A stretch of DNA of 64,000 nt. Source: Patescibacteria group bacterium (GTDB taxonomy: Bacteria; Patescibacteriota; Minisyncoccia; GCA-002772825). The notes below the pieces were generated by a model, which did no database searches, was not told where the DNA came from, and saw only the letters and a program-made list of their open reading frames with translations. The translations under genes were made by a program, and so were the position numbers. Positions 60 to 59,035 of this stretch are shown here, piece by piece. The first letter of the stretch is position 1. Each line of letters opens with the position of its first letter. Where the stretch lies: assembly GCA_024654625.1 (NCBI GenBank), contig JANLHB010000016.1, positions 128,137 through 192,136 of the forward strand, given 5' to 3'.

Positions 60-3000
60 GTGGCAAACCGAACTGCCCGCGAGATTCTCTATGATCCCTC
101 TTCGCCTAAAATCAGGCGATCACATTCAATCGTCTACGACAGCATCCATAAACGATATCTGCTTTTTGGCGGATGGAATGGCACAAGTCCTCGCTACAAC
201 GATGTGTGGGAGTTGTCTGCCGATGACCGATTTGGTTCTTCTCCTCCCCAATGGAGAAAATTAAATCCTTCGGGAACTCCGCCATCTGCCCGCACAACTC
301 ATCTCGCTTTCTTTGATGCCACCGGCAACCGAATGATCATTCACGGTGGATATGACGGCGCGGATAAAAATGACACCTATGCGCTTGATGTTACGACCAG
401 ATACAGCGAAGCGTGGACGACGCTTTCTCCTACCGGCACTGCTCCTGCCGCGCGAAGTCAAGCGGCTGGTGCTTTCAAAGCGTCTACGAGAAAAGCGTAT
501 GTTCAGGGCGGTTTGGTTGGCGCGGGCGATTATCGCAACGACCTTTTTGAGCTTGACCTCTCCACGACAAATGGAGCGTGGACTCAACTGAAAGCCGAAG
601 ATGCGGCCGGCAATCCTCCCAGCCGAGCAGACCACTCGATAGTTTTTGATATTACAAATAATCGTCTGCTTATTTTCGGCGGATACGATGGCACGAATCG
701 ACTGAACGATCTCTGGAGATGGGATATCGCCGGCGCTTCGTTTGCCGAAGTATCTGACGGCACTCCTCCGGGAGTGCGGCAGATGCATGTGGCCGTCTAT
801 GACGAAAATAATCCAAGAATGATTGTCTGGGGAGGGAGAAACGGCACTGCATCCTCAAATTATCTTTCGGAGATTTGGGAGCTCAACACCACATCGGGAA
901 GCGAAACATGGACTGACAGAAGCCAAGCGGCGGGAGATAAAGTCCCCGGCTCGCGTTCTTCGGCCGCATGTTTTGATACGGTCAACAAGATAATGGTCAT
1001 ATTCGGCGGCGAGGATTCGGCATTGGCGCAACACAAGCATGTATATTTCATTGACCTCGCTACATCTGGTTCTGCCCCATTTTGGGGGGCGCTTCACAAC
1101 AACTGGCTATGGGGCCGCGATGCGATAGGTTACGCCTATAATCCCGACAGAAACGAAACTCTTATTTTCGGCGGATTCGGCCGTCTGGTTGAAGATACGC
1201 TTGCCGAAGGAGAACACACGAATGAATTTTGGATTTACGACCACGCCAATGGCGAATGGTATCAGCCGATTTTCAATACGATGTTCGGCATATCAGAACG
1301 AGAAGGGGCAACGATTATTTATGATACTAACCGAGATCGCTACATTATTTTCGGCGGTTTGGGCGGCAACAATACTCTAAACAATATTTACTTCAACGAT
1401 GTCTGGGAATTAAAAGCCAGCGCCGTTGGCGCGACTGGAGTTTATACTCTCACTAAACTCAATCCCTCGGGCACGAAACCCGCCGCACGATGGTTGCACG
1501 CCGCAGTATACGATGCGACTAATGACCGAATGATTGTTTTTGGCGGAGATGACGGCTCGAATTTCTTGAACGACGTGAAAGCACTCTCGTTCTCCGGGGG
1601 AGCTGACGGCGCTTGGTCTGCGATCACGCCCACCGGGACTGCGCCATCTGCCCGCAGACAGACGGCTTACGCCATAGACACCGGCGAGAATGTGATGCTG
1701 ATTTCTCATGGCGGCACTGGGGTGAACTCCTTTGCCGGCGACACTTTCAAACTGACGCTTACCGCAGGATCAGAAGCATGGGGAAGCGTTACGGGAACTG
1801 GCGCTCCATCTGCCCGCCGCGGCATGACCGCCATCTATCGTTCAACAGATGACGCTTTCTACTTTTTCGGCGGATACAACGGCACGACTAATTTTGATGA
1901 ACTCTGGAAGCTAACTTTTGGCGCAACTCCAGCGTGGTCTGCCGTTGCCGATACAAGCCCGCCAGCAGGAAGGCGGTCTCATTCAGGGACTTATTCTCCT
2001 ACGGGAGACAAAATGCTGATTTACGGCGGCCGCGACAGCACTGAAATATCATTCAATACCTTAAATCAAACTTGGGAATATGATATCGCGGGAAATGTTT
2101 GGACAAAGAAAGACCCCAAAATTTACATTCGGGGCGGCGATGATGTGACCGGCTTGGCTTCGTCCACCTCGTATCACTGGCAATCTTGGGTTACGGGAGT
2201 ATCCGGCGGCGATGCCGACAAAGTGTCGGCGTTCGGAAACTTGGAGAGCGTGGCGGATTTTCTCACAGGAACTGGTCAAGCTTTTACTCAAACTCTTAAC
2301 GAAATAGTTGCTGTGGCCGATCAAGTTCCGAAGCAGGCCCAGAAAGCCGCAAGCGAAGTGTTATTAATCGTTGATTCTTTGACGAGAAGCACATCGCGGA
2401 TATTTACGGAAGTCATCGCCATAGTTGATTCAATATCAAATCAGGCGCAAAAAATATTCTCGGAAATAGTTTCAATTGCCGATTCGCTCATAAAGCAAGG
2501 GCAAAAGAATCTGGCAGAAGTTATCACTATTACCGATACCGTACTCACTCAATCAACGCTCTTTAGGACTTACTCCGAAATAATCACAATTACCGACTCT
2601 CTGGCGAAACAAGTTGCCCGATCATTCAACGAAATGGTGATTCTTACCGATTCAGTGACCGCAAAAATCACCGCAAAGATTTTTGAAGAAGTGGTGATTA
2701 TTGTCGATAGCATTCAGCGAACCATTTCGAGAACTTTCAATGAAGCTCTAACGATTATTGATACAAAAATACTCCAGCCGATTAAAAACTTTATTGAGAC
2801 AGTTATTATCGCCGATGTTCTGTCGGTGGTGTTGACCATAAAAAAAGAACTCTCGGAAGCGGTTTTACTGGTTGATTCAGCGATAAAAGATATCGGAAAG
2901 TTTCTGGCGCCAGAAATCGTGTTTGTTGCCGACAACGCGGCACGGTTAAGCGGAAAAAATCTACAAGACACAATTATTGCCGCAGATTCTATCGCTAAAG

Positions 3001-5690
3001 AAAGCCAGCGGAGTATCTTGGAATCCGTATTGGTGGCGGATACTTCCATCCGGCAAGACATCAAAACATTCGGAGAAGTAGTAACGCTGGCTGACAACTT
3101 TTTGAGAACTTGGACAATCCAGAGGGTATTTGAGGAAATCGTTGCCATTGCCGATGTCTTATCCCGTCAAACTCAAAAAGCGTTCAGCGAAGTGGTGATA
3201 ATTGCGGATGCAATCATTGGAAAAACAATATCCAAAGTTTTGTCAGAAATAGTCACGATAGCGGACGCAATCGAGAAACAGATAAGTAGGATTTTTAATG
3301 AAGTTGTGGCAGTGGCCGACAGTATTGTTCGTTCTACCTTAAAACTTTTGAGCGAGGCGGTGATTATCGCCGATATTTTCTTGGCGGTGGCTGTCGTTAA
3401 AAAAGAACTTGTCGAGGCAATTTTGCTGGTAGATTCGGCTATAAAAAGTGTCACGAAATCGATGACAACGGAAATCGTGCTGGTTACAGACAGCGCGGCG
3501 AGATTAGTGGAAAAAAATCTGCAGGACGCGGTTATTGTTGCCGACTCTGTCTTAAAAGAAAGCAGGCGGATCATTCTCGAATCAGTGTTGCTTGTAGACA
3601 CATCCTTCAGACAAGGGATCAAAACGCTCGAGGAAGCGGTGACACTTGTCGACAGTTTTTTGAAAACTTGGACGGCGCAAAGAATCTTTGAGGAAATTGT
3701 CGCCATCAGCGATTCCGTATTCCGGCAAGCGCAAAAGACACTCATTGACGCAGTAATAGTTGCCGACTCGTTAGTGAAATCGATTCAGAGATCGTTGGCA
3801 GAAGCTGTAGCCATCGCAGATTCACTTTTGAGGCAGGCCCAGAAATTAGCGCAAGAAGCTGTGTTTATTGTTGACACCCTCGCAAATCAACTGACTGCAA
3901 GCAGAATTTTTGCAGAAGTTGTCGCAGTGGCCGATACGATTTTTAAGCAAATGAGCAGAAGTTTGGCAGAAGTTGTGGCCATAGTCGACTTTCTTCTGCG
4001 GGCCCCGCAAAAGGTTCTTGCCGATGCGGTGGCCATCGCCGACTCTATCCTAAAATCCGCCCAAAGAGCTTTTTTTGAAGCCGTGGCCGTGGCTGACACA
4101 CTGGCAAAACAAATGATTCGAAGGTTCTCTGAATCAGTGGTTATTGCGGATACTGCCCAAGCTATAAAAACTTTTGTCAGAGATTTGGATGAAATTATTG
4201 CTGTTGTTGATTCAGTAGCGAAACAAACCGGCAGAAGTTTGGCAGAAGTCATATTGATCGTTGATTCGGCGATACGCTCGGCAGGAAAATTCATAACCGA
4301 AACAATTATTGTGGCTGATTCAATTATTCGAGAGACGAGCCGAACGATAAACGAGGTTGTGGTTGTCTCGGATAATCTTGTAAGACAAACTGGAAGAATT
4401 TTGAGCGATGCGGTTGCCTTAGCCGACTCAGTCACTACCAAGATAACCGCCAAGATTTTTGCTGAAGCGGTAGCGATTACTGATGCCATAGAAAAACAGA
4501 CGGGGCGAATTTTGAGCGAGATCGTGGCAATCGCAGACAATCTGATCCGGCAAGCCGGCAAGGTTTTGAGCGATCCCATAGTCGTAATCGATACTTTCAC
4601 CCGCACGATCTCCATTCAGAGAATATTGCAGGAAGCAGTGATTATCGCTGACAGCGTAAACAATCAGGCCCAAAAGATATTCGGGGAAATTATATCGGTC
4701 ATTGATAGTTTAAGCCGGCAGATTTCTCGTCTATTTGCCGAAGCGATATCGATAGCCGATTCGGTTTCAAAGACAGCTCAAAGAATACTTCAAGAAACCA
4801 TCTCAATTGCCGACGCACTCACAAGAGCTGGCGGCAAAGCTCTAAACGAAATCGTCACCATCGCGGATTCTTTATCAAAACAAATCACCCGAACATTAAA
4901 CGAAGTTGTCGCCATCGCTGATTCTGTCTTGAAGCAAGGATCAAGGATTTTTACGGAAGCCATATTGCTTGCTGACAACTTTATTCGGCAGGCCGGCAAA
5001 GTATTTTCCGAAGCAGTACAAATAGCCGATGGCGTGATCGCCGTCAAACTGCAGGTGCTTCTTTCCGAAATAATTGTCATCGCTGACAGCGTTATCATGC
5101 CTTTTACGAAAATGCTTGCCGAGATGATAAGCATTGCGGACGCGATTGTCCGTCAAACAGCCAAGATTTTTGGCGAGGCGGTTTCAATCGCTGATTCGCT
5201 CGGCAAACAGATTTTGAAAATATATGCGGAGATGGTTGCTGTCGCGGATTCAGCGATGCGCCAACCAATGAAGCTTCTCAAAGAAATAGTGACGATAGCA
5301 GATTCGATGGCTCGAATCGTGTCCAGAGTGTTTGCACAAACCATAACGATTGCCGATTCGGCTTTGAAAAAAGCAGTTCGAGTTTTTGCGGAAGCAGTGA
5401 GTATCGCTGAATCACTCGCAAAGCTTCTTACACGATACGCGAATCTTAACGAAATCGTGCAGGTGGCAGATTCGATCATTCGGGCAATTGGCAAGGCGGT
5501 CACCGAGACCGTCCGTATCGTGGCAGAGCTTTTGAATAAACCAACCTTCCCGCCTGTGCTCAAGGTTGCGATTCAATTTCTGACCGCAAAGATCGGTGTT
5601 TTGCTTTCGAGTTCAAAACAGAATACCGAACTAAAGAGCGCGAAAACAGGGGTCGATCTTAAGGGCGCGAAACAAGATATCAATTTGTAA
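60..5690 (+). CDS. Giant repeat protein, 5'-truncated at the window edge. N-terminal Kelch/galactose-oxidase-like beta-propeller repeats, then about 57 tandem copies of a 19-aa unit (x-F-x-E-V-V-x-I-A-D-S-x-x-R/K-Q-x-x-K). Putative phage fibre or adhesin.
   Basis: The reading frame is open from nt 3 with no in-frame stop upstream of the first in-window ATG at 60. Repeated ...FGG...W... Kelch blades run from about aa 1-700. From about nt 2250 to 5500 the sequence repeats with a 57-bp period, seen as recurring EVVAIADS / EIVTIADS / EAVAIADS peptides. Confidence 0.8.
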   Translation: MANRTAREILYDPSSPKIRRSHSIVYDSIHKRYLLFGGWNGTSPRYNDVWELSADDRFGSSPPQWRKLNPSGTPPSARTTHLAFFDATGNRMIIHGGYDGADKNDTYALDVTTRYSEAWTTLSPTGTAPAARSQAAGAFKASTRKAYVQGGLVGAGDYRNDLFELDLSTTNGAWTQLKAEDAAGNPPSRADHSIVFDITNNRLLIFGGYDGTNRLNDLWRWDIAGASFAEVSDGTPPGVRQMHVAVYDENNPRMIVWGGRNGTASSNYLSEIWELNTTSGSETWTDRSQAAGDKVPGSRSSAACFDTVNKIMVIFGGEDSALAQHKHVYFIDLATSGSAPFWGALHNNWLWGRDAIGYAYNPDRNETLIFGGFGRLVEDTLAEGEHTNEFWIYDHANGEWYQPIFNTMFGISEREGATIIYDTNRDRYIIFGGLGGNNTLNNIYFNDVWELKASAVGATGVYTLTKLNPSGTKPAARWLHAAVYDATNDRMIVFGGDDGSNFLNDVKALSFSGGADGAWSAITPTGTAPSARRQTAYAIDTGENVMLISHGGTGVNSFAGDTFKLTLTAGSEAWGSVTGTGAPSARRGMTAIYRSTDDAFYFFGGYNGTTNFDELWKLTFGATPAWSAVADTSPPAGRRSHSGTYSPTGDKMLIYGGRDSTEISFNTLNQTWEYDIAGNVWTKKDPKIYIRGGDDVTGLASSTSYHWQSWVTGVSGGDADKVSAFGNLESVADFLTGTGQAFTQTLNEIVAVADQVPKQAQKAASEVLLIVDSLTRSTSRIFTEVIAIVDSISNQAQKIFSEIVSIADSLIKQGQKNLAEVITITDTVLTQSTLFRTYSEIITITDSLAKQVARSFNEMVILTDSVTAKITAKIFEEVVIIVDSIQRTISRTFNEALTIIDTKILQPIKNFIETVIIADVLSVVLTIKKELSEAVLLVDSAIKDIGKFLAPEIVFVADNAARLSGKNLQDTIIAADSIAKESQRSILESVLVADTSIRQDIKTFGEVVTLADNFLRTWTIQRVFEEIVAIADVLSRQTQKAFSEVVIIADAIIGKTISKVLSEIVTIADAIEKQISRIFNEVVAVADSIVRSTLKLLSEAVIIADIFLAVAVVKKELVEAILLVDSAIKSVTKSMTTEIVLVTDSAARLVEKNLQDAVIVADSVLKESRRIILESVLLVDTSFRQGIKTLEEAVTLVDSFLKTWTAQRIFEEIVAISDSVFRQAQKTLIDAVIVADSLVKSIQRSLAEAVAIADSLLRQAQKLAQEAVFIVDTLANQLTASRIFAEVVAVADTIFKQMSRSLAEVVAIVDFLLRAPQKVLADAVAIADSILKSAQRAFFEAVAVADTLAKQMIRRFSESVVIADTAQAIKTFVRDLDEIIAVVDSVAKQTGRSLAEVILIVDSAIRSAGKFITETIIVADSIIRETSRTINEVVVVSDNLVRQTGRILSDAVALADSVTTKITAKIFAEAVAITDAIEKQTGRILSEIVAIADNLIRQAGKVLSDPIVVIDTFTRTISIQRILQEAVIIADSVNNQAQKIFGEIISVIDSLSRQISRLFAEAISIADSVSKTAQRILQETISIADALTRAGGKALNEIVTIADSLSKQITRTLNEVVAIADSVLKQGSRIFTEAILLADNFIRQAGKVFSEAVQIADGVIAVKLQVLLSEIIVIADSVIMPFTKMLAEMISIADAIVRQTAKIFGEAVSIADSLGKQILKIYAEMVAVADSAMRQPMKLLKEIVTIADSMARIVSRVFAQTITIADSALKKAVRVFAEAVSIAESLAKLLTRYANLNEIVQVADSIIRAIGKAVTETVRIVAELLNKPTFPPVLKVAIQFLTAKIGVLLSSSKQNTELKSAKTGVDLKGAKQDINL

Positions 5691-35501: not shown

Positions 35502-35810
35502 TTAAACCTTTTTGAGCGATTTGAAAAATACCGCCGCCACTACCAAATCAACAACCGACCAAAGGAAGTGACCAAAGTAAAATGGATTGATTGGGTTAAA
35601 GATAATTGCGACAACTATCATGACCCACATCCATTTTTTATTTTTATCTAAATGAAAGGTATACGCAGAGTAAGCCGCAGTGCCGAAAATCAAAAATTTC
35701 AAGAGCTGATAAAAAAAATACGGCCAGATTGGAATCATCGCGATCAACAGCGCTACGGCCGATAGTTTGGAGAATAAGTTTTTATAGTGTGTCTGTTCGG
35801 CGGTTATCAT
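35502..35810 (-). CDS. Small polytopic membrane protein
   Basis: 102 aa with three hydrophobic helices. It is convergent with the AAA gene. Confidence 0.45.
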   Translation of the reverse strand: MITAEQTHYKNLFSKLSAVALLIAMIPIWPYFFYQLLKFLIFGTAAYSAYTFHLDKNKKWMWVMIVVAIIFNPINPFYFGHFLWSVVDLVVAAVFFKSLKKV

Positions 35811-35909
35811 ACGAGCATCTTAACAAGATTCGTCCCTTTTCACCAATAAAAGGCCAAAAAAAGATTAAAAGAATCTAAAATAAAGATAAAGAAAAAATAA
35901 AGCCCATCG

Positions 35910-35938
35910 TTGACCACCATGAAGAAATGGTGTAGTAT
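35910..35938 (+). promoter_or_regulatory. Near-consensus sigma70-type promoter: TTGACC, a 17-nt spacer, then TAGTAT
   Basis: -35 at 35910-35915 and -10 at 35933-35938 with an exact 17-bp spacer, inside an A-rich intergenic region. Confidence 0.5.
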
Positions 35939-35944
35939 ATTGCT

Positions 35945-36293
35945 AACCCCAGAAGCCCAGAATAGTTATCCACTATTGCTCGGTTGACTCATCTGGACGA
36001 TTAGCATAGGGGTTGTGTTGAAGGCCAAAGTCGAGCCTTCACAGCAAACTTACAACTGCATATAACAAATCCGTTTCCCGAAAGGGAATCAATTCCGCGA
36101 AAGCGGAAATGAGTTGGAGCACGGAGTTGGCTAGCTACTGAAGTTGCTTAATGTGGGCGAAGGCTTCCATTAAACCGATTTTTGTAGTATCATAATCATG
36201 CCATGCCCTTTTGCAAAAGGGCGGCATGGAAATCCTGCCGCAAGGTTAGGTACAAGGCCACCCGTGAGCTCCAACTCTGGGTGGTTTTGTTTT
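35945..36293 (+). ncRNA. Unassigned structured RNA of ~350 nt between a strong promoter and an intrinsic terminator, immediately upstream of the tyrosine recombinase. Identity unknown; tmRNA and other classes were not confirmed.
   Basis: No ORF longer than 60 codons. GC-rich stem-forming segments are present (catgccc...gggcggcatgg, gcggca...tgccgc). It ends at hairpin CCACCC-N15-GGGTGG followed by TTTTGTTTT (36258-36293). Confidence 0.4.
36258..36293 (+). terminator. Intrinsic terminator (CCACCC ... GGGTGG followed by TTTTGTTTT)
   Basis: 6-bp GC stem followed by a T-tract, 25 nt upstream of the recombinase ATG. Confidence 0.45.
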
Positions 36294-36317
36294 ATGCACC
36301 TTACAACTTAAAAAAAT

Positions 36318-37337
36318 ATGCAATTTAAAGAAGCAATCGATCAATTTTCTAACTGGCGCAGGTTTAAGGTCAAAGTTCAGACCGTAAAAGGTTACGATCA
36401 GACACTGAGACAATTCTGCCTCTACCTTCGAAACCCCCAGATCGAGGACATATCAATCCATCATGTCATGGACTATTTGAATGGCATGAAAGAACTGGGA
36501 TGGGACCAAAATAGCTTTGTCGGGAAGTGCATGGCTCTGCGCAAGTTCTTTGAATTTTATCGACTTCAGAACTATGCAGTTCTCGATGAGAACCTGATTC
36601 CGATACCCAGCAAAGAACATAAACTTCCAAGGGTTGCAAAAGAGGCGGATTATAGGCAACTGATTGCCGCCATACCCGTAAAGACCACCGATCCTCGTCA
36701 TATCCGAAACTTAGCCATCGTGAATTTGTTATGGGACACCGGCGCGAGAAACGGAGAGGTGCTTGCATTAGATGTAGATGATCTGGACATGGAGAGACGC
36801 CGAGCGGTTATCAATACTGAGAAATCAAAAGGAAGGCGGCCGTTTCGGGAATTATTCTGGACACAATCAACCAACGACAGTATATGGGCTTGGTTGAAAA
36901 AAAGAGAACACCTAAAAAAGACAATGGCGTTCAAGGAACCAGATGCTCTCTTTCTCTCGATATGCGCCGGCCAGCACGATACGACAGGCAGACGATTCAC
37001 TATCCGAGGAGTCGGTGAAATGTTGAGGCGTTATTCAAACAGAGCTAAGTTGCCCTACTTGAACGCTCATAGTTTTCGACACCATATGGGTCACCACATT
37101 ATAAAGAGCGGCGGATCAAGCGCCGATGTGATGAATATACTTGGCCACTCGTCGGTCCAGAGCTCGACAATTTACACGATGATGACTGATCACGAATTGG
37201 AAAAGAGATATCGAGGATTCATGAACGATACTCCGACAAAAGAAAGAGCAGAGAGGATAGAGAGAGCAGAAAGAGTTGCGAGAGTCGAAAACTCCGTAGA
37301 GAAATTTGCGAGACCCGTCGTCCCGTTGCCAGATTAA
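36318..37337 (+). CDS. Tyrosine recombinase (XerC/XerD-like phage integrase family)
   Basis: SAM-like N-terminal core-binding domain. Catalytic residues: WDTGARNGE (Arg), HSFRHHMGHH (H-x-x-R) and LGHSSVQSSTIYT (Tyr). Confidence 0.85.
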   Translation: MQFKEAIDQFSNWRRFKVKVQTVKGYDQTLRQFCLYLRNPQIEDISIHHVMDYLNGMKELGWDQNSFVGKCMALRKFFEFYRLQNYAVLDENLIPIPSKEHKLPRVAKEADYRQLIAAIPVKTTDPRHIRNLAIVNLLWDTGARNGEVLALDVDDLDMERRRAVINTEKSKGRRPFRELFWTQSTNDSIWAWLKKREHLKKTMAFKEPDALFLSICAGQHDTTGRRFTIRGVGEMLRRYSNRAKLPYLNAHSFRHHMGHHIIKSGGSSADVMNILGHSSVQSSTIYTMMTDHELEKRYRGFMNDTPTKERAERIERAERVARVENSVEKFARPVVPLPD

Positions 37338-37654
37338 CCAACTGTGGGCATCTATCAGCTTGATAGAATACCCCGATAAGTTATAATGAATATACGAAAA
37401 GACAGCTGTGGGCAACTCAACTTGATGACTTTGAGAACTTAGCATAGGGTTGTCCTTGAAAGAGAAAAGACAGACCTTTGACAACCCGACTTTTACTCCC
37501 AGATGATCCGACGGCAACCTACCGACGGGCCATCTGGGGAGTAAAATAAACACTCGTAAGACAAAAGGTTTTGGGACTACCCAAAGACCCGCATGACAAT
37601 TAGCCCAGTGGATGAAATATAAAAAGTGTCATGGGAGGTAAAAATTAATAATCC

Positions 37655-37671
37655 GGCTATGCGATAGCCAG
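37655..37671. repeat. REP-like palindrome GGCTATGCGATAGCCAG (left flank of the RAYT gene)
   Basis: 6-bp stem GGCTAT/ATAGCC with a GCG loop. The identical copy is at 38321-38337 and the inverted copy at 38557-38571. Confidence 0.6.
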
Positions 37672-37686
37672 AAGTTAAAAAAAAAG

Positions 37687-38343
37687 ATGAAAGGTGATAT
37701 TTTTCATATTATAAACAGGGGAGTGGAAAAAAGAAAAATCTTTTTAACAGATGAAGATTATTTACGTTTCATTCATAATTTAAAGGATTTTAATTGTAGT
37801 GATCTAGTTACAGCTTCATATCATGATAGGCGAAAATATGAACAGTCGTTGCTTGAGAGACGGTTAAATACAAAATTAGACAATGAATTAGTGGATATAT
37901 TGTGTTGGTGCCTTATGCCAAATCATTACCATATACTTGTTCAGGAAAAAATAGATAAGGGGGTCAGTATGTTTTCTAAAAAAATAAGCAGCGGATATAC
38001 TCAATCTTTTAATTTAAAATATAAGAGATCGGGAGTTTTGTTTCAAGGTCGGTCAAAAATTATTCAAATAGAAAATGATGAGCATCTTCTATTTATCCCT
38101 TATTACATTTTTTCTAATCCCATTAAACTAATAAAAAAGAATTGGAAAGATTATGGTTTGGATAACGCGGAAAAAGCAGTTGAATTCTTAGAAAGCTATA
38201 AGTGGTCAAATTATTCAATTGTGACAAATAATAAGGACTATCCTTTCGTAGGTGACAGAGATCTGTTTTTTGAAATCTTTGATACTAATAAGGAGCAGTT
38301 TAGAAAAGATTTTATAACCTGGCTATGCGATAGCCAGAAATAA
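37687..38343 (+). CDS. IS200/IS605-family Y1 (HuH) transposase / REP-associated tyrosine transposase (RAYT)
   Basis: CWCLMPNHYHILVQ contains the HuH motif (HYH) typical of the IS200-like TnpA fold. The gene is flanked by REP-like palindromes. Confidence 0.75.
   Translation: MKGDIFHIINRGVEKRKIFLTDEDYLRFIHNLKDFNCSDLVTASYHDRRKYEQSLLERRLNTKLDNELVDILCWCLMPNHYHILVQEKIDKGVSMFSKKISSGYTQSFNLKYKRSGVLFQGRSKIIQIENDEHLLFIPYYIFSNPIKLIKKNWKDYGLDNAEKAVEFLESYKWSNYSIVTNNKDYPFVGDRDLFFEIFDTNKEQFRKDFITWLCDSQK
38321..38337. repeat. REP-like palindrome GGCTATGCGATAGCCAG (right end, inside the 3' end of the RAYT gene)
   Basis: Exact copy of the 37655-37671 element. Confidence 0.6.
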
Positions 38344-38556
38344 AAAGTGCCATGGAAAATAAATAAAGGTGATTAAGGCCAATGGTCTCGATCCCCTTAC
38401 TGGGGGCATTAGGTTCGTTTCATCAGATTTTTCTGCAAGTCGTGATCTTACAAAATCATCCAATAACTTATGGCCGCATTTTGCCCCCCCCCACGCGTAC
38501 TACATTATTGAGCCGAATACAGTATAGAAAAAGAATATATTATTGTCTAGGAACTC

Positions 38557-52036: not shown

Positions 52037-55000
52037 ATGATATTAAAATTATTCAAAGGGAGAGAAGGGGTAAAAACAAACAGAAACCTTACCAGTAAAC
52101 TTATCCTTTTAGCTATCTCTCTCTTCCTCCTCTTCTCCTCTTTCACTCAAACTACAGAAGCAGCCACAGAATCAATAAAGACGATAAGAGAAGATGGAAC
52201 AGGGGACTACACTTCACTCTCCGCATGGGAAGCCGGAGAACAGAGGGACCTCACCGCTACCGATGAAATAGCCGTCGCCCGTATCGAAGGGACCTGGACT
52301 AACCCTGATACTACCGCTGTCACTATAGACGGTTGGACTACAGACGCGACTAGATATATTAGGATATATACTGCGCCGGAGGCGAGGCACACAGGAAAGT
52401 GGGATACGGGGAGGTATATGCTACAAGCCGGAGGAAACACTTTAAATATCCAAGAACAATACACCAGAATCGATGGGCTTCAGGTTTATCAAACCAATTC
52501 AGGAAACTGGAACAACGGTGCTATAAACGTGAATGTAGCTAAACCCTATGTTCAAATTTCTAACAACATAGTTAAATCGGCATTAGCTAACAATGTCAGT
52601 CTCAACGGCGGTGGCGCATTGATATTGATTCAGTATTTTAACAATACGAGTAATATAAATAAAATTTGGAACAACATTCTTTATGATAAGCCGGGAACTT
52701 ACGGAATAGGGATAAATGCCTATGGTTATAATGAGATAACTTATATTTATAATAATACGATAACAGGTTCGGCGGTGGGGATATATGTTTATACGGGGAT
52801 TTATGAAGTGGTGGTTGCAAAAAATAATCTTGTTTACAACAACACAGACAATTATAACGGCACTTTTAATGTCGCTTCGACTAACAACCTATCTGGCCAT
52901 TCTCAGGCAGACGCTCCCGGATCAAATTCAAAAAACTCTACTACCGTCTTTTTTGTAGATTCAACAAGTAAAGACTTCCATCTTGTTTCAGGCGATACAG
53001 GGGCGAAAGATTCAGGAACAGACTTATCAGGAGATGCAAATCTAGCTTTCTCCACAGACATAGATGGAGAGACCCGTTCAGGGACTTGGGATATCGGCGC
53101 GGATGAAACTTCAGGTGGTACTCCACCACCTTCCTACCAATGCTCCGACGGCCTAGACAACGACGGAAACGGCCTCACCGACTATCCTTCTGACTCGGGC
53201 TGTACTTCTACCACCGACAACGACGAATACAATGCGCCCACCGACATCACTCCACCCACTCGGTCTACCGGCTCACCCACAGGCACCCTAACATCCGGCA
53301 CCACCTCCACCACACTATCAATCACCACCGACGAGAACGCCACCTGTAAGTACGGCGTAAACTCAAACACCGCCTACGCTTCCATACCAAACACTTTCTC
53401 CATCACCGGAGGCACTAGCCACACCACCACCTTAACCGGTCTCACAGGTGGCACATCCTACACCTACTACATAAGGTGCCAAGACACGGCCGGCAACCCT
53501 AACACCTCAGACTATCCGATCACCTTCTCTGTCGCGTCAGCTCCTACAACAGGCACCCCTTCGGTAAGTGGAGTGTCGGGAGCATTCACTAATGATTCTG
53601 CAATCACAATCACGGGCAGTAGCTTTGGGTCCAATGGACCAAACATCGTAGTCTTTGACGATTTTGAGGGTGGTACAAACGGGTCTGTTGTTTCCACAGG
53701 AGCAAATTCTGCTACCGTAGGAAAATGGGACAGAGTGGGCGGTGGCGACAATAATAACCCGCCTGTTTATGATAATATTTTTTCTGTTTCCGGGAGCAGG
53801 GCTATGAAGTCTGATTATACTGTTAAGACCAATACAGGCACAGATTCAAACTCAGCCGCTTTTGTAGATGGAATTGATACGGGAGATGTATTTTTATCCT
53901 ACTGGTATTACTTGCCAACGACTTCGAGCTTCCCTTGTTATAACAGGGGGATCTGTAACTGGAAAGTAGCGTGGCTATATGGCGCGGATACTCGCTATGA
54001 TGACCAGGTTTTACCTGTCGGTTTGCCGGGCGGGACAACTCCACCTTATTCAAGCTGGGCTGTTTCTTGTAATGACTGTTTTGGTGGTACTGCAAACTGG
54101 TATACCCTGAATATGGCTAAAGGGAAATGGTATCGGGTGTCGGCATGGGTTCATGCAACCCCTGATTCTTCCAGTGAAAAGACGTTATGGGTGGTCAGCA
54201 CAGATGATGCAATACCTGTTACCCAAAAGGTCAATTGGACAGGTCAGATATTCAAGGATATTGGCGATGTATTTAAAACTTTTTCTTTTAGCTCATGGGC
54301 GAGATGGTGCAATGACTGCGCTGAAAGCGCGCCAAGATTTGATGATGTATATATGGCAACCGGATCGAATGCAAGAGCAAGAGTGGAAATAGGTAATGCT
54401 TCCACGTATTCCGCCAGCACCAATCTTTCGATAGCTACTGTAACTTCCTGGAGCGACAGCTCCATTGCCGCGACGGTAAGGCAAGGCTCCTTCACCCCCG
54501 GCCAAACCGCCTACCTTTATGTCATAGACGCCAACGGCAATGTCAGCGCCGGCAAACAGATAACGATAGGAGGGACAAGTGTCCCACTGACTGACATCAC
54601 AGCGCCGACTACCACCACTTCATTATTAGGTGGCACCTACAACGGAGCTCAGACAGTAACCCTCTCCACTAACGAGACAGCAACCACTTACTACACCATC
54701 GACGGTTCAACCCCAACCATTTCATTAACAGTCTATTCATCAGCCATCTCCATACCGCAGACCACAACATTAAAATACTTTTCCGTAGATACGGCGGGAA
54801 ACACCGAAGGCGTCAAAACCCAGACCTACACTATCAATACCTCCACCAAATTCAGCTTAAACAACAGAGTCCAAACAACCTCCACCTTAAATGTCAGACA
54901 AACCCCTTCCGCTACTGGCACCCTCTTGGGTACGGAAGCTCAAGGAAACTTAGGCACTGTAACAGGTGGCCCAACTTACGCCGATAGCTTCTGGTGGTGG

Positions 55001-58000
55001 CAAGTTCAATATGATTCAGGTCTAACCGGCTGGTCTGTTGAAGATTACTTAACTTTGTATTCTGCTCCTACATCAGGCACCCCTTCGGTAAGTGGAGTGT
55101 CGGGAGCATTCACTAATGATTCTGCAATCACAATCACGGGCAGTAGCTTTGGCGCCAATGGACCCAACATCGTAGTCTTTGACGATTTTGAGAGGGGGAC
55201 GAACGGAAGTGTTGTCGCAACCGGCGCAAACTCTGCTACCATAGGAAAATGGGACAGAGTGGGGGGTGGAGATAACAGCAACCCGCCAAAGTATGATAAT
55301 ACCTATTCCGTTTCGGGGAATATGGCGTTTAAGGGGGATGCCACGAAGCAAACCAACCCCGGCAGTTCAGATTCTACCAGCGCCGCCTTTATTGATAATT
55401 TAAACTCTTCGGATGTTTATCTTTCATATTGGGTCTATTGGCCGACCACTTCTAGTTTCCCCTGCAAAGATGGGGGGATTTGTAATATTAAATACGCATG
55501 GTTTTATGACACCACTACATTAAATGATAGGACTATGTTTTCATCTATGCCTAGCAGTAACAGCACCGTCAGCTCCATTTATTTTTTTGGTAACGGAAGC
55601 GCTACCGGCGAACATTATTTCTCACCTTCTGTATCCATGCAAAAAGGGAAATGGTACAGATTGTCCGGCTGGATACACGGCGCTTCCGATTCTTCAGGCC
55701 GGGAGAATGCTTGGATTATGAGCCCTTCTGATCAAGCGAATATCGCTGTGTCTCAAAGAGTAGGTTATTCAGGACCAGTACTTAATCCAGGAGGATTATT
55801 CAAACACTTCTCTTTTAATGCATACGAAAGGTGGTGCAACGACTGTGCTGAAAGCGCCCCAAGGTTTGACGACGTCTATTTGGCAACCGGACCAAACGCC
55901 CGCGCAAGAGTAGAAATAGGCAACGCCTCCACCTACAATGCCAGCACCAATCTTGCCATAGCTACTGTAACTTCCTGGAGCGACAGCTCTATCACGGCGA
56001 CAGTAAGACAAGGCTCTTTCACCCCCGGCCAAACCGCCTACCTCTATGTCATAGACGCCAACGGCAATGTCAGCGCCGGCAAACAGATAACGATAGGAGG
56101 GACAAGTGCCCCACCTACCTTGGGTGACCCTGTGGTGAGTGGAGTCTCGAGCACGTTCAATCATGGTTCCAGTGTCACGCTAACGGGTAGCAATTTCGGA
56201 TTAAAAGCTTCAGCCACCCCAATGGTATGGGAAAACTTTGAGTGGGGCGTGAACGGGGATGAGATAACCGGAAAAAATGGATGGATTGAATCGAACGCCG
56301 CGACTCAACCGAATACTTCTATAAATACCGCGCAGGCTTACGGTGCCGGTTCCCGTTCTTCCTATTACATGGTAGACCCCCCGGAAGGCAGTCAAGCGTC
56401 GGAGACTCAGGAATTCGGGTTTATAAAGAAAACATTTCCTGAAAGCGATCAAGTTTATGTCAGTTATTTGACGAGAATTGATCAAACTGTCGCTTCGGGT
56501 TCAAGAATGTGGAAGATTGGCAGAATTGGAAATTGGAGTACCGTACCTTCTTACAATCAGCCTCCATATATGGGAGTTACTTGGTTTCCTACAGAATGGA
56601 ACTCTCATTATGATGTAGGGAATGGGCAGACGGGGGTATACGATGGTGGCGGTTATGCGACTAACACATGGCATCGAGTGGAAATGTGGATTAAGTTGTC
56701 AAGCCCTGCTGATACCGCAAACGGAGAACTGGAGTACTGGTTAAATTATGCGCAGAAAAATCCTAAGAATGTTACCGTAACAAGAACAGCGACCATTGCA
56801 AATGAGAAAATAGATACATTTACTTCTCCTCATATGTATGTTAATGCCGTTGGGGGGAAATATGAAATATGGATGGATGATGTATATATTGATAATACAA
56901 AATCCAGAACAGAGCTTTGCAATAGTTCTACATGGGCTACTCGCATTCAGTGCGAAATCCAAATACCATCCGCATGGTCTCCCAACTCTATCACTCTCAC
57001 CGCAAATCAAGGTGCGTTCACTCCCGGCCAGACAGTCTATCTCTATGTCATAGACGCCTCCGGCAAAGTGAACGCAAGCGGTTATCCTGTAACGATAGGG
57101 GGGATAAGTACTCCCACCTACCAATGTTCCGACGGCACCGACAACGACAGTGATGGTTTTACTGACTACCCTTCAGACCCCGGTTGTACTTCCACCACCG
57201 ACAACAACGAATACAATCCACCAGCCGACACCACCGCCCCAGTCCTCACCGCCATCACCGCAACCTCAATCGGCCCAAACTCCGCCACCATCTCCTGGGC
57301 CACCAACGAACCGTCAGACACTCAGGTAGAGTATGGTCTCTCCACTTCTTATGGTACTGCCACCAACTTAAACTCCAACCTGACCACCACCCACAGTCAG
57401 ACCTTAAACAACCTTTCACCTTCTACCCTCTACCACTACCGAGTAAGGTCAGTTGACGCTTCAGGCAACAACTCTATCTCCACCGACCAGACCTTCACTA
57501 CTTCAGGAGTTCCGGACACCACCCCACCTTCTGCCATCACCAACCTCTCCACCTCCTTCATCAACCACACCTCCATTACTCTAAACTGGACCGCACCGGG
57601 AGATGATGGCACCCAAGGTGCCACCCGCTCTTACGATATAAGGTATTCAACTTCACCGATAGACGACACAAATTTCTCTTCTACCACTCAAGTCACCGGA
57701 GAACCAACCCCTAAAGTCTCCGGCACCTCGGAATCTTATCCTATCGCCGGCCTCTCTTCAGCCACCACCTACTACTTTGCCCTGAAAACCACCGACGATG
57801 CCGGTAATGTCTCACCCCTCTCCAACATCGCTAGTGACACCACTCACTCTCTCACCCTCTCCGTCAATCTCTCCGCCAACAAAACATCAGGCAACCCACC
57901 ATTATCCATCAACCTCACTGCCTCATCCGCCGGCGACACCTTAGGTCAGACCACCTACACCTTCTATTGCAACAGGGAAGACACCGGCACCAACATCACC

Positions 58001-59035
58001 ACCGACTACAACACTCAAGGCCCATTAGAAACCCACACCTGTACTTACCCCACCGTCGGAAGTTACACCGCTAAAGTGATCGCCCAGAGAGGTACCATCT
58101 CCTCAGAAAACAGAGTCAGTATCAATGTCACATCTCCAACTACCACCGGAAACACCACCACCGTCACTTCAGGTGGGGGAGGAGGAGGCGGATCCTACGG
58201 CGGCGGCGGTAACTACTACGACACCACTCCACCAGCTGTCCCTCAAGCCTTCACCGCCCAATCCGCCGAGAACCAAGCCACCCTTACTTGGACCAACCCA
58301 CCCGACTCCGACTTTGTCCGTGTGGCGGTCGTCCGTTCTCTTACTCCTATCTCTAACCTCTCCACTTTCACTCAAGCCCAGACTCAAGGAGAAGTAATCT
58401 ATGAAGGAACAGACAACGAATACACCGACATTAATCTTTCCAACAATACCCCTTACTATTACGCCATCTACTCTTACGACAAGAAACCTAACTACTCCAA
58501 TCCGATTATCGTCACTGCCACTCCGAAACTCGGTCAGACCTCTATCTCCACCCAAACAACACCAACCTCTCTTCCTATCTTCACCCCAACCATCACCACT
58601 CTCCCACCGCTAGAGGGTCCGTTCTCCATCGGTATGGAAAACAATCAAGTCAAACTCCTCCAACAATACTTAGCTCAGGACAAAGAGATCTATCCCGAAG
58701 GGATCACTTCCGGCTACTACGGCGCCTTAACTCAAAGAGCCGTCGAAAGATTCCAAAAGAAATACAATATCATCTCTTCCGGTTCCCCTTACACCACAGG
58801 CTACGGTCTTGCCGGTCCCGGCACCCGTGCCAAGATCATGGCCGTCTTAGGTGCCACCCTTTCCACCTATGGTGGGGGAGTAAGCACCCTACCTGGGCAG
58901 ACAATCCCAACCTCCGAAGATGCCCTGAAAGCCCTCTTGATGAAACAGATTGAAGAACTTCAGGCGATCTTGCAAGATCTTTTAGCTCAACTGGTAGAGG
59001 CTTTGATGTTGCAACTTCAGGGGATGGCGAGGTAG
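52037..59035 (+). CDS. Giant secreted surface protein: N-terminal beta-helix-like region, two MopE-like Cys/Asp metal-binding motifs, three tandem ~350-aa modules ending in IPT/TIG-like domains, FN3 and PKD-like domains, a Gly-rich linker and a C-terminal peptidoglycan-binding domain
   Basis: Signal-anchor LILLAISLFLLFSSF. YQCSDGLDNDGNGLTDYPSDSGCTSTTDN is repeated at aa ~365 and ~1,695. FN3-like TAPVLTAITATSIGPNSATISWATNEPSDTQVEYG...YHYRVRSVDASGN. C-terminal PG_binding_1-like VKLLQQYLAQDKEIYPEGITSGYYGALTQRAVERFQKKYN. Confidence 0.85.
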   Translation: MILKLFKGREGVKTNRNLTSKLILLAISLFLLFSSFTQTTEAATESIKTIREDGTGDYTSLSAWEAGEQRDLTATDEIAVARIEGTWTNPDTTAVTIDGWTTDATRYIRIYTAPEARHTGKWDTGRYMLQAGGNTLNIQEQYTRIDGLQVYQTNSGNWNNGAINVNVAKPYVQISNNIVKSALANNVSLNGGGALILIQYFNNTSNINKIWNNILYDKPGTYGIGINAYGYNEITYIYNNTITGSAVGIYVYTGIYEVVVAKNNLVYNNTDNYNGTFNVASTNNLSGHSQADAPGSNSKNSTTVFFVDSTSKDFHLVSGDTGAKDSGTDLSGDANLAFSTDIDGETRSGTWDIGADETSGGTPPPSYQCSDGLDNDGNGLTDYPSDSGCTSTTDNDEYNAPTDITPPTRSTGSPTGTLTSGTTSTTLSITTDENATCKYGVNSNTAYASIPNTFSITGGTSHTTTLTGLTGGTSYTYYIRCQDTAGNPNTSDYPITFSVASAPTTGTPSVSGVSGAFTNDSAITITGSSFGSNGPNIVVFDDFEGGTNGSVVSTGANSATVGKWDRVGGGDNNNPPVYDNIFSVSGSRAMKSDYTVKTNTGTDSNSAAFVDGIDTGDVFLSYWYYLPTTSSFPCYNRGICNWKVAWLYGADTRYDDQVLPVGLPGGTTPPYSSWAVSCNDCFGGTANWYTLNMAKGKWYRVSAWVHATPDSSSEKTLWVVSTDDAIPVTQKVNWTGQIFKDIGDVFKTFSFSSWARWCNDCAESAPRFDDVYMATGSNARARVEIGNASTYSASTNLSIATVTSWSDSSIAATVRQGSFTPGQTAYLYVIDANGNVSAGKQITIGGTSVPLTDITAPTTTTSLLGGTYNGAQTVTLSTNETATTYYTIDGSTPTISLTVYSSAISIPQTTTLKYFSVDTAGNTEGVKTQTYTINTSTKFSLNNRVQTTSTLNVRQTPSATGTLLGTEAQGNLGTVTGGPTYADSFWWWQVQYDSGLTGWSVEDYLTLYSAPTSGTPSVSGVSGAFTNDSAITITGSSFGANGPNIVVFDDFERGTNGSVVATGANSATIGKWDRVGGGDNSNPPKYDNTYSVSGNMAFKGDATKQTNPGSSDSTSAAFIDNLNSSDVYLSYWVYWPTTSSFPCKDGGICNIKYAWFYDTTTLNDRTMFSSMPSSNSTVSSIYFFGNGSATGEHYFSPSVSMQKGKWYRLSGWIHGASDSSGRENAWIMSPSDQANIAVSQRVGYSGPVLNPGGLFKHFSFNAYERWCNDCAESAPRFDDVYLATGPNARARVEIGNASTYNASTNLAIATVTSWSDSSITATVRQGSFTPGQTAYLYVIDANGNVSAGKQITIGGTSAPPTLGDPVVSGVSSTFNHGSSVTLTGSNFGLKASATPMVWENFEWGVNGDEITGKNGWIESNAATQPNTSINTAQAYGAGSRSSYYMVDPPEGSQASETQEFGFIKKTFPESDQVYVSYLTRIDQTVASGSRMWKIGRIGNWSTVPSYNQPPYMGVTWFPTEWNSHYDVGNGQTGVYDGGGYATNTWHRVEMWIKLSSPADTANGELEYWLNYAQKNPKNVTVTRTATIANEKIDTFTSPHMYVNAVGGKYEIWMDDVYIDNTKSRTELCNSSTWATRIQCEIQIPSAWSPNSITLTANQGAFTPGQTVYLYVIDASGKVNASGYPVTIGGISTPTYQCSDGTDNDSDGFTDYPSDPGCTSTTDNNEYNPPADTTAPVLTAITATSIGPNSATISWATNEPSDTQVEYGLSTSYGTATNLNSNLTTTHSQTLNNLSPSTLYHYRVRSVDASGNNSISTDQTFTTSGVPDTTPPSAITNLSTSFINHTSITLNWTAPGDDGTQGATRSYDIRYSTSPIDDTNFSSTTQVTGEPTPKVSGTSESYPIAGLSSATTYYFALKTTDDAGNVSPLSNIASDTTHSLTLSVNLSANKTSGNPPLSINLTASSAGDTLGQTTYTFYCNREDTGTNITTDYNTQGPLETHTCTYPTVGSYTAKVIAQRGTISSENRVSINVTSPTTTGNTTTVTSGGGGGGGSYGGGGNYYDTTPPAVPQAFTAQSAENQATLTWTNPPDSDFVRVAVVRSLTPISNLSTFTQAQTQGEVIYEGTDNEYTDINLSNNTPYYYAIYSYDKKPNYSNPIIVTATPKLGQTSISTQTTPTSLPIFTPTITTLPPLEGPFSIGMENNQVKLLQQYLAQDKEIYPEGITSGYYGALTQRAVERFQKKYNIISSGSPYTTGYGLAGPGTRAKIMAVLGATLSTYGGGVSTLPGQTIPTSEDALKALLMKQIEELQAILQDLLAQLVEALMLQLQGMAR

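Follow-up and report, generated by a model that had tools for sequence, protein, structure and literature searches.

In phage lambda, the output of int depends on the promoter that is used, with only one type of transcript forming a given RNA structure; the element concerned, sib/tI, lies 3' of int and involves RNase III. In phages P1 and P7, the c4 antisense RNA of the immI operon is located 5' of its target on the same strand, and the short segments that are complementary covary among related phages. The Lacto-int and int-alpA motifs are conserved structures that lie beside phage or island integrase genes. Here we describe a conserved, folded RNA element, R1, that lies directly 5' of a tyrosine recombinase (integrase) gene, int, in 64,000 nucleotides (nt) of DNA from a Patescibacteria group bacterium (GenBank assembly GCA_024654625.1, contig JANLHB010000016.1, positions 128,137 to 192,136 of the forward strand). 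This whole stretch is called the window below, and positions are counted from its first letter. Neither Rfam 15 nor the literature that we searched contains the widespread RNA architecture of R1, which is tied to the integrases of phages of the Patescibacteria, or candidate phyla radiation (CPR). We suggest, with a probability of roughly 55%, that it is a cis-acting riboregulator (attenuator) of the integrase, in a module of temperate CPR phages and of a derived or related 1.77-kb integrase-only unit.

R1, its parts and the gene that follows it are located in the window as follows (ORF, open reading frame; A3 and A5 are alignments described below).

35910-35938 (+): P_up, an upstream promoter-like site, TTGACC, 17 nt, TAGTAT, from a consensus scan and conservation of register
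35945-36293 (+): the R1 structured RNA element, about 350 nt here, from the fold z score, nhmmer conservation and an architecture common to about 25 clusters
35961-35977 (+): small hairpin AATAGT-TATCC-ACTATT with the recurrent motif AGTTATCCACT, from the motif count and a compensated stem
36020-36040 (+): hairpin GAAGGC ... GCCTTC with a conserved GTCGA-type loop (helix 3 of A3)
36071-36124 (+): three-way junction, from constrained folds and double changes at all pairs on the structure-fitted A5
36111-36120 (+): junction strand GAGTTGGAGC, the 5' partner of the long-range helix, pairing with 36268-36277
36183-36193 (+): internal -10-like box TGTAGTATCAT, putative promoter P_int, between the two partners, from motif conservation
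36196-36255 (+): near-invariant 3' core, with the hairpin CCATGCC ... GGCATGG (36201-36229) and the GCAA-capped hairpin CCTGCCGCAAGG, from the alignment
36252-36293 (+): terminator-like hairpin, a 13-bp stem and a loop of TGA plus GCTCCAACTC, then a T-run, from A3 covariation
36294-36311 (+): five-codon mini-ORF, MHLTT and stop, in frame with int and directly 3' of the hairpin, from reading the sequence
36318-37337 (+): tyrosine recombinase (integrase), Xer-like, two-domain (Pfam PF00589, 6.8e-24, and PF02899)

R1 resembles c4 in that its 5' partner lies upstream of the target on the same strand, in its lineage-specific, covarying pairing, and in its place in a temperate-phage control region. 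Judged from the sequences, it appears to have the hallmark of a same-strand antisense RNA, complementary segments that change together between related elements. It differs from c4 in having no Rfam C4 match and in its target, which is a hairpin loop 25-50 nt 5' of the int start and not a ribosome-binding site. Furthermore, the regulated gene is an integrase here and an antirepressor for c4, and the 5' partner of R1 sits in a three-way junction. The two promoter-like sites, and the logic of an RNA structure that depends on the promoter, recall lambda sib/tI. However, R1 is a 5' leader with a terminator-like hairpin and long-range loop pairing, and it has no sequence relation to the lambda element. 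Like riboswitch and attenuator leaders (ZTP, fluoride, preQ1), R1 is a coding-strand 5' leader with covarying helices, a probable pseudoknot into the expression platform and a terminator-like hairpin before the ORF, but it is much larger (280-350 nt), with a variable linker of 100-170 nt that often contains a promoter-like box, and it has no consistent antiterminator, no Rfam riboswitch match and no ligand implied by the gene context. The IS110 bridge RNA and the IS605 omega RNA are also structured noncoding RNAs in the noncoding end of a small mobile unit, directly 5' of the recombinase gene. Their proteins are a DEDD-type (RuvC-like) recombinase or TnpB/IscB, whereas the protein here is a tyrosine recombinase; the variable segments of R1 pair mutually and not with flanking DNA, and R1 has no Rfam match. 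The Lacto-int and int-alpA motifs, if present in Rfam 15, give no match at E<=10, and R1 differs from them in its occurrence in CPR phages and in its junction-to-terminator-loop pairing.

The original prediction, made from the letters of the window, described a near-consensus promoter and a hairpin with a T-tract terminator around this stretch, with GC-rich pairing segments and no long ORF between them, and each of these features is present. The P_up hexamers, TTGACC at 35910-35915 and TAGTAT at 35933-35938, agree with the consensus at 9 of 12 positions in the promoter scan. The scan score by itself is not above chance (7 sites in the region, 4.7 expected). However, the two groups of closest sequence preserve the register between the two boxes: window-type loci have TTGACC-17-TAGTAT, and loci of the L024 type (loci are numbered with an L) have TTGACC-17-TAAGAT. 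Analogues of the form TTGAC(A/T)-17-TAnnnT are seen 5' of the junction domain in L037, L047, L061, L085, L102, L106, L109, L112 and L117. The putative P_up thus has the hexamers, a spacing within 16-18 nt and the positional conservation of a sigma-70-type promoter, and transcription from it would start near 35945.

At the other end, the stem of the terminator-like hairpin pairs ACAAGGCCACCCG (36252-36264) with TGGGTGGTTTTGT (36278-36290) over 13 bp and overlaps a T-run that reaches 36293. The terminator scan skipped this hairpin because its loop of 13 nt exceeds the limit of 8 in the tool; an inner GAG/CTC pairing could cut the loop to 6 nt. A G/C-rich stem-loop directly before a U-tract is the signature of an intrinsic terminator, which 36252-36293 would therefore be by its sequence, and a hairpin with a U-tract lies 0-27 nt 5' of the int ATG in most lineages. 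Within the stretch, CCATGCC (36201-36207) pairs with GGCATGG (36223-36229). The possibility that R1 codes for protein was rejected, as there is no + strand ORF of more than 41 amino acids and the core is invariant at all codon positions. The sole recurrent reading frame in the region is the five-codon mini-ORF at 36294-36311, which stops 6 nt short of the int ATG. The same mini-ORF ATG is kept in window-type loci; in L020 the frame continues into int. Prophage-type loci have the int ATG itself in this place.

The folding energy of R1 on the + strand is -132.2 kcal/mol, compared with -101.4 +/- 5.95 for shuffled sequences (z = -5.18, with 0 of 100 shuffles as good), and the - strand of the same stretch gives z = -4.09. 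Several of the hairpins have GNRA caps, namely CCC-GAAA-GGG, CGC-GAAA-GCG and CCGCAAGG. Together with the conservation and the compensatory changes described below, these features of R1 are far beyond chance and confirm that it is a real, conserved, folded RNA element.

R1 is found 5' of a Xer-like tyrosine integrase, on the same strand, in about 25 independent lineages among CPR metagenome and IMG/VR viral contigs, and the integrases that follow it are 40-97% identical. A search with nhmmer showed R1 directly 5' of int on the + strand in 24 loci (integrases >=70% identical), with E values down to 1e-120. All nhmmer matches are 5' of int, so that R1 has the position of a leader, on the same strand as the regulated ORF and directly 5' of it. 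In the loci with distant integrases the sequence of R1 looks different, yet a side-by-side reading finds the parts in the same order. This common order is a promoter TTGAC(A/T)-17-TAnnnT, a three-way junction, a single strand of 6-10 nt, a linker of 100-170 nt, an (A)CGCC-hairpin-GGAAAC segment and a final hairpin with A-rich 5' and U-rich 3' flanks, with the int ATG 0-27 nt further on. The total length is 280-350 nt.

In the common junction, two hairpins lie within a closing helix, the first of them mostly CCC-GAAA-GGG, and the 6-10-nt single strand directly precedes the 3' strand of this helix. The closing helix in the window is formed by CCGT (36071-36074) with ACGG (36121-36124), and the enclosed hairpins 1 (36075-36088) and 2 (36093-36108) both have a GAAA loop. 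Constrained folds give the same three-way junction in most lineages, and in almost all of the parsed ones there is a gap of 0 nt between the pairing strand and the start of the closing helix after it. Upstream of the junction, the hairpin at 36020-36040 has 6 pairs, 97% paired and one of them double-changed on the plain MAFFT alignment, with equivalents in L039 and L061. The 3' core is almost identical between window-type and L024-type loci despite a difference of about 30% between their integrases; as it never varies, covariation is uninformative there (helix 8).

The box of the putative P_int, TGTAGTATCAT in the window, reads TGGTATCAT, TGGTATTAT, TGGTATGAT or TGCTATACT in relatives. A strict extended -10, TGnTAnnnT, occurs 3' of the junction strand in 16 of 27 clusters, usually as the sole copy in 450 nt, and a TTGAGG-like -35 ahead of the box often overlaps the junction strand. 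The 8-mer TGTAGTAT, which is the first eight bases of the window box, recurs in the -10 region of P_up.

The central observation on the structure of R1 is the complementarity between its two ends. The loop sequence GCTCCAACTC (36268-36277) of the terminator-like hairpin is the exact complement of the junction strand GAGTTGGAGC (36111-36120). Covariation in homologues had been proposed as a check in the original prediction, and compensatory changes are indeed seen in the relatives. On A3, a plain MAFFT alignment of 14 close relatives that is not structure-fitted, the long-range helix has 10 bp and is paired throughout (100%); at 4 of these pairs both sides have changed, and the 14 sequences contain 7 compensated variants. 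Variants in close relatives include GAGTTAGAGC/GCTCTAACTC, GAGTTGAAGC/GCTTCAACTC, GAGTTGAAAC/GTTTCAACTC and GGATTGGAGC/GCTCCAATTC. The terminator stem is also 100% paired on A3 over its 13 pairs, 2 of which are double-changed (helix 9); slid controls for the A3 helices are 37-47% paired. In distant lineages, the same two places are occupied by unrelated sequences, such as GGATGCGAC/GTCGCATCC, GAGGCAAA/TTTGCCTC, GACGCTAA/TTAGCGTC, ATGCCACT/AGTGGCAT, GTACGACC/GGTCGTAC and GTCTGGTAG/CTACCAGAC. Over the 24 lineages that were parsed, the helix contains 19 different 6-mers, all of them paired. In window-type loci, the pairing positions vary about 3 times more than the rest of the 3' domain (3 of 10 versus 8 of 81 columns), and always with compensation. 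The 5' partner of L103 is a hairpin loop too, so the contact there is a loop-loop kiss in the strict sense. Complementarity of loop and junction, present in nearly all lineages and with a different sequence in each, indicates a long-range kissing or pseudoknot helix, and the support for this helix is exceptionally strong.

As the MAFFT alignment of the divergent junction domains was poor, an anchored, structure-fitted alignment, A5, was used for 23 divergent lineages drawn from the 24 parsed. A5 has 22 pairs in five helices, 99.8% paired in these fitted structures, with double changes at every pair. The number of double-change cells is 173, compared with 43.8 in shuffles, and 0 of 500 shuffles reach 173; slid controls are 31-42% paired. 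RNAalifold, which cannot draw a pseudoknot, gave a partly implausible nested structure for the close-relative alignment, and a hand-built structure was used instead. In a test free of fitting, each loop was set against the upstream region of its own cluster and against the corresponding regions of 36 others. The longest Watson-Crick run averages 6.9 nt with the own region and 5.1 nt with the others, and for 10 of the 37 clusters no other region gives as long a run as the own one, despite the sharing of loops between related clusters. Furthermore, about 30 G-U cells are present in A5 and A3, including invariant pairs of the terminator stem. All of them would be C-A mismatches on the opposite strand and so fit the + strand only.

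How would R1 act on the integrase? We propose that R1 is transcribed on the int strand from the promoter just 5' of it, and that the RNA would have two domains, a 5' three-way junction that offers a single strand of 6-10 nt and a 3' domain with a G/C-rich hairpin and U-tract before the int start. The junction strand would pair with the hairpin loop in a kissing or pseudoknot helix. The hairpin would be an attenuator, that is, an intrinsic terminator, for transcripts heading into int, and docking of the loop on the junction would set the terminator efficiency or the fate of the mRNA. Long transcripts from P_up would contain both partners, and short transcripts from P_int would contain the hairpin only. 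In the long transcripts, pairing of loop and junction would lock the terminator hairpin or change it; as the content of the transcript depends on the promoter, the output of integrase would depend on the promoter that fires. The sequence comparisons show the conservation of R1, its architecture, the covariation of five helices (the long-range one among them), its strand, its linkage to int and its place in the mobile element. That P_up and P_int are transcribed, that transcripts end at the hairpin, and the sign of any effect on int are inferred. The terminal hairpin abuts the int start in nearly every lineage, and this points to a leader or regulatory role and not to a free-standing housekeeping RNA.

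Two other modes of action were considered. Sequestration of a Shine-Dalgarno sequence by the G-rich 3' arm of the hairpin is not favored, since a Shine-Dalgarno-like sequence is present in only 5 of 37 predicted genes of the window, most starts following A-rich TAAA-type leaders, and the arm is 12-15 nt from the ATG. Given this scarcity of Shine-Dalgarno sites, a terminator is a better description of the hairpin than a trap for the ribosome-binding site. A consistent antiterminator is not present, as the pairing reaches into the 5' arm in some lineages only.

The product of int has the residues R144, K169, H251, R254, H277 and Y286, which are invariant in 31 homologues and probably form the catalytic set. 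With this set and the Phage_integrase fold, the adjacent protein has the characters of a tyrosine recombinase. Its closest solved structures are XerA and XerD in the PDB, and its PHROG match is an integrase. It also matches, over about 290 residues, PDB 9i5v chain 14, a chain of 401 amino acids that is labelled RaiA and traces to a paper on the Porphyromonas gingivalis ribosome; this chain may be a fusion of a Xer-like protein with RaiA and seems to be irrelevant to R1. Homologues with 60-97% identity are spread over many CPR/Patescibacteria lineages, and those in IMG/VR contigs have 40-72% identity; the loci sampled were 8 genome loci, 80 metagenome loci and 34 IMG/VR viral contigs. Near-identical copies are present at groundwater sites; contigs L013, L014 and L022 have 'Hain' names, and metatranscriptomes of the Hainich wells are reported in PMC12960796. 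Among annotated phages (50,697 records), the closest integrase is 27% identical, and there is no DNA match to R1. Tandem integrases occur in two loci, with three copies at L088:428-3942, like a recombinase-in-trio element, and two at L055:1877-3906.

The gene order in prophage-type loci is a large PHROG-matching phage-type gene, a small holin-like membrane ORF, an amidase endolysin, a small membrane ORF, R1 and int, with a small helix-turn-helix (HTH) gene 3' of int. In about ten loci, what looks like a SecD/F-like host ORF lies 3' of the HTH gene, as read from its sequence. On viral contigs, int is about 1 kb from the contig end. R1 is thus located between the lysis genes and int both in prophage-type loci and in IMG/VR viral contigs, and this int family is the integrase of temperate CPR phages.

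In window-type loci, R1, int and a second conserved noncoding element, R2, make up a 1.77-kb module with sharp ends at 35862 and 37635 and with flanks that are unrelated between loci (boundary loci L002, L011, L013, L018 and L001). Its two outer parts are as follows.

35862-35909 (+): left end of the conserved module, A/T-rich, with (A/C)TAAAG-type repeats 5' of the promoter; homology starts at 35862-35864
37379-37635 (+): R2, second conserved noncoding element, 3' of int (z = -3.65, 73 sources)

Many contigs start or stop inside the module, which is expected of a repeated or strain-variable unit, and the evidence suggests that R1-int-R2 is a unit of 1.77 kb that is mobile or present in several copies. 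Near both module ends, the window has an A-rich direct repeat of 14 nt, AAAAAAAGATTAAA at 35856 and AAAAAAAGATGAAA at 37679. R2 is 3' of int and on the same strand in 73 sources, with one copy in each, and has no Rfam family match. It has a promoter-like site, TTGATG-17-TAGGGT, at 37422-37450, a conserved GAAGAAGTATAAGAAGTG-type sequence in its loop, and a terminal hairpin (...TGTCATGG) that shows some compensated changes and ends at 37635, which is the right boundary of the module. The 5' 65 nt of R2 repeat the 5' part of R1. A direct repeat of 29 nt with 72% identity, 36001-36029 and 37439-37467 (TTAGCATAGGG..TTGT..TTGAA), brackets the integrase. Along with the AGTTATCCACT motif and a TTGAC box, this repeat makes the 5' parts of R1 and R2 paralogous, and it is possibly a duplication of attachment-site (att) type. 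In prophage-type loci, the R2 promoter overlaps the 3' end of the phage HTH gene, which favors R2 as part of the element instead of as a target gene. R1 belongs to the element and not to the host, because it travels with the integrase.

No family of Rfam 15 accounts for R1. ARAGORN detects no tRNA or transfer-messenger RNA (tmRNA) in the whole window, and the only Rfam 15 matches in the window are a LOOT RNA and a SAM riboswitch. At 35700-36450 nothing reaches the gathering score, and at E<=10 the matches are at chance level only: CRISPR-DR51, with 19.9 bits where the cut-off is 45, and three models of eukaryotic miRNA/lncRNA, all at E 1.8-5.2. The classes covered by Rfam 15 include RNase P, 6S, SRP, group I/II introns, HEARO/omega RNA, ROOL, GOLLD, C4 and riboswitches. 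In twenty R1-related loci, Rfam 15 gave LOOT matches elsewhere in the loci and none on R1. The original prediction had left a choice between a divergent tmRNA-class RNA and an unclassified structured RNA. The former fails, with 0 ARAGORN genes in the window and no tmRNA match in Rfam 15 even at E<=10; the latter describes R1 well, a + strand element between promoter- and terminator-like brackets and tied to a tyrosine recombinase. The absence of RNase P and SRP, also noted there, agrees with Rfam 15, which has neither at 35700-36450. A guide RNA for the recombinase, similar to a bridge RNA, was tried and rejected: the longest match of the pairing strands to the flanks (1 kb 3' of int and the region 5' of R1) is the same, 5.8 nt, whether the flanks come from the own locus or from others. 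A literature search on integrase-linked structured RNA in CPR or phages, and on RNA-guided tyrosine recombinases, found nothing relevant.

Several observations weigh against a cis-acting attenuator. A5 was built from per-sequence folds, so its percentage of paired positions is inflated, and the diversity of pair types is the informative part. In the window, complementarity runs on from the junction strand into the 5' arm of the hairpin (21 nt, 76% complementary), and in L101 it extends by 6 bp; on inspection, no such extension is present in L024 or L039, and the conserved feature is pairing with the loop only. The invariant 60-nt core (36196-36255) exceeds the needs of a simple attenuator, which suggests a bound factor or ligand. 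Some members of the integrase family have no recognizable R1 (L083, L081, L104, L118) or a different leader (L094, L055). In addition, G-U pairs make up 1 of 138 cells of the long-range helix on A5, and the same would be expected of inverted repeats at the DNA level. The main rival is a trans-acting RNA, in which the 5' junction domain would be a separate small RNA made from P_up that kisses the hairpin loop of the int mRNA made from P_int, as a same-strand antisense of the c4 or plasmid kissing-RNA type, with the variable pairing setting specificity groups; in a radical variant, the integrase would bind R1 (and R2) as cofactors. The pairing positions, being about 3 times more variable and always compensated, behave as specificity determinants do, and the L103 loop-loop kiss fits such an RNA, as does the near-invariant core, which hints at a bound protein. 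The extended -10 box between the partners in 16 of 27 clusters could serve the second promoter, and a U-rich run after the closing helix could end a short RNA (GGTTTTTGTG in L101, GGTTTTGTG in L113, GGATTTGT in L078 and L096). However, there is no terminator-like signal after the junction in many lineages (L032, L035, L117, L119), nor directly after it in the window, and read-through from P_up would put both partners on one transcript. The pairing sequences have no third copy in the 1-kb flanks, and so there is no sign of a DNA guide function, and some integrases of the family have no recognizable R1, so the RNA is not needed for catalysis. We regard a trans-acting RNA as a real, if unlikely, possibility. 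It has been extended in a further reading, in which R1-int-R2 (35862-37635) would be a mobile element in its own right, and the two structured RNAs that it encodes would control or assist its recombinase. The compensated pairing would then be a trans specificity code that gives mutually blind groups (integration immunity or exclusion among CPR phages and mini-elements), or would reflect coupling to an RNA cofactor; this we consider improbable.

Could the conserved pairing be a property of the DNA? R1 would then be an invertible promoter switch of the fimS type, or a folded single-stranded DNA (ssDNA) recombination site such as the attC site of integrons or that used by XerCD on the CTX phage. 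The partners do flank a segment of 100-170 bp with a promoter-like box, beside a tyrosine recombinase of the Xer/integron-integrase type, and the long-range helix is nearly pure Watson-Crick, as noted above. Hairpin 2 has GCGAAAGC, which we take to be a very stable mini-hairpin in DNA also. Covariation is unable to separate ssDNA folds from RNA folds (PMC5737381). However, no inverted segment was seen in any examined locus, where a minor orientation could hide in the assemblies, and the order of the parts is constant. The nhmmer matches on the - strand are to a short palindromic hairpin only, and the palindromic arms of the 3' repeat are missing from the 5' repeat, which makes the two non-equivalent as sites for a recombinase. 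In L061, L064 and L066, transitions separate the two partners, and these leave G-U pairing intact while DNA identity is lost. The other helices contain many G-U pairs and have GNRA caps, and on the coding strand they are preceded by a promoter and followed by a U-tract. Furthermore, the lysis cassette and the large PHROG-matching gene indicate tailed double-stranded DNA phages, which probably have no obligatory ssDNA stage. We therefore give DNA-level features very little weight. The least credible alternative takes up the suggestion of the original prediction that R1 serves as the integration site: R1 would be a host RNA gene, either a divergent tmRNA or some other housekeeping RNA, used by an integrated element for attachment. 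Integrases often adjoin tRNA or tmRNA genes, the size fits, the repetition of the 5' part of R1 on the 3' side of int looks like an att duplication, and the GC content drops near 37.6 kb. Against this, the ARAGORN and Rfam results are negative, and R1 evolves along with the integrase lineages. It is co-inherited with int, inside prophages between the lysis genes and int, on viral contigs and in the sharp-ended 1.77-kb module, and no copy away from an integrase is present in the window or in loci L001-L088, which were fetched before the viral-contig scan. This explanation is largely refuted.

Some features of the 5' end of R1 recur elsewhere. The TAAAG-type motifs 5' of P_up are spaced by about 10 nt at 35868-35905 and are found likewise 5' of the promoter in L024, L032, L035 and L039; they may be sites for regulator or recombination proteins. 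The stem of the small hairpin at 35961-35977 is compensated between lineages, AATAGT/ACTATT versus GAAGT/ACTTC, as read off the alignment. Its motif, AGTTATCCACT, contains TTATCCAC, which resembles a DnaA box. There are 4 intergenic copies of the motif in the window (16082, 19063, 22815 and 35964, all +), compared with 0.84 expected, and outside the window it is seen at L029:1056 and in L116 and L118. With its covarying flanks, it is able to fold into a small stem-UAUCC-stem hairpin, and a TTGAC -35 box often follows it. In the window and in L029, it also lies about 40 nt past the 3' end of the LOOT RNA (RF03000). The LOOT RNA of the window is at 19109-19231 (-), and this RNA recurs within a few kb of the integrase module at L016:2364-2486, L029:1101-1218 and L083:6402-6526. 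The SAM riboswitch (RF00162, 61 bits) is at 18649-18762 (-).

The next gene past R2, 37687-38343 (+), encodes a Y1 protein (IS200-like/REP-associated tyrosine transposase-like), and the same ORF family is found about 2 kb past R2 in L004. Just past the right end of the module, at about 37500-38500, the GC content falls from about 0.43 to 0.34 and the GC skew rises, which may mark a junction of DNA of different origin. The window also contains three very large + strand ORFs, at 60-5690 (1876 amino acids), 10167-15893 (1908 amino acids) and 52037-59035 (2332 amino acids).

What does R1 mean for the biology of the CPR phages? Almost nothing is known experimentally about their decision between integration and excision, and R1 is a conserved control region at that point. 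It offers a well-defined RNA architecture, in which the pairing of a junction with a terminator loop comes with abundant natural compensatory variants. As a new RNA family, it can be used in the annotation of CPR genomes and viromes, where the region now breaks contigs and goes unannotated. If the model of a promoter-dependent leader is true, R1 would be a 5' counterpart of the classical retroregulation of lambda int. If instead the RNA acts in trans or as a cofactor, a tyrosine recombinase would be linked to an RNA specificity code, which would be of interest for mobile-element biology and possibly for recombinase engineering.

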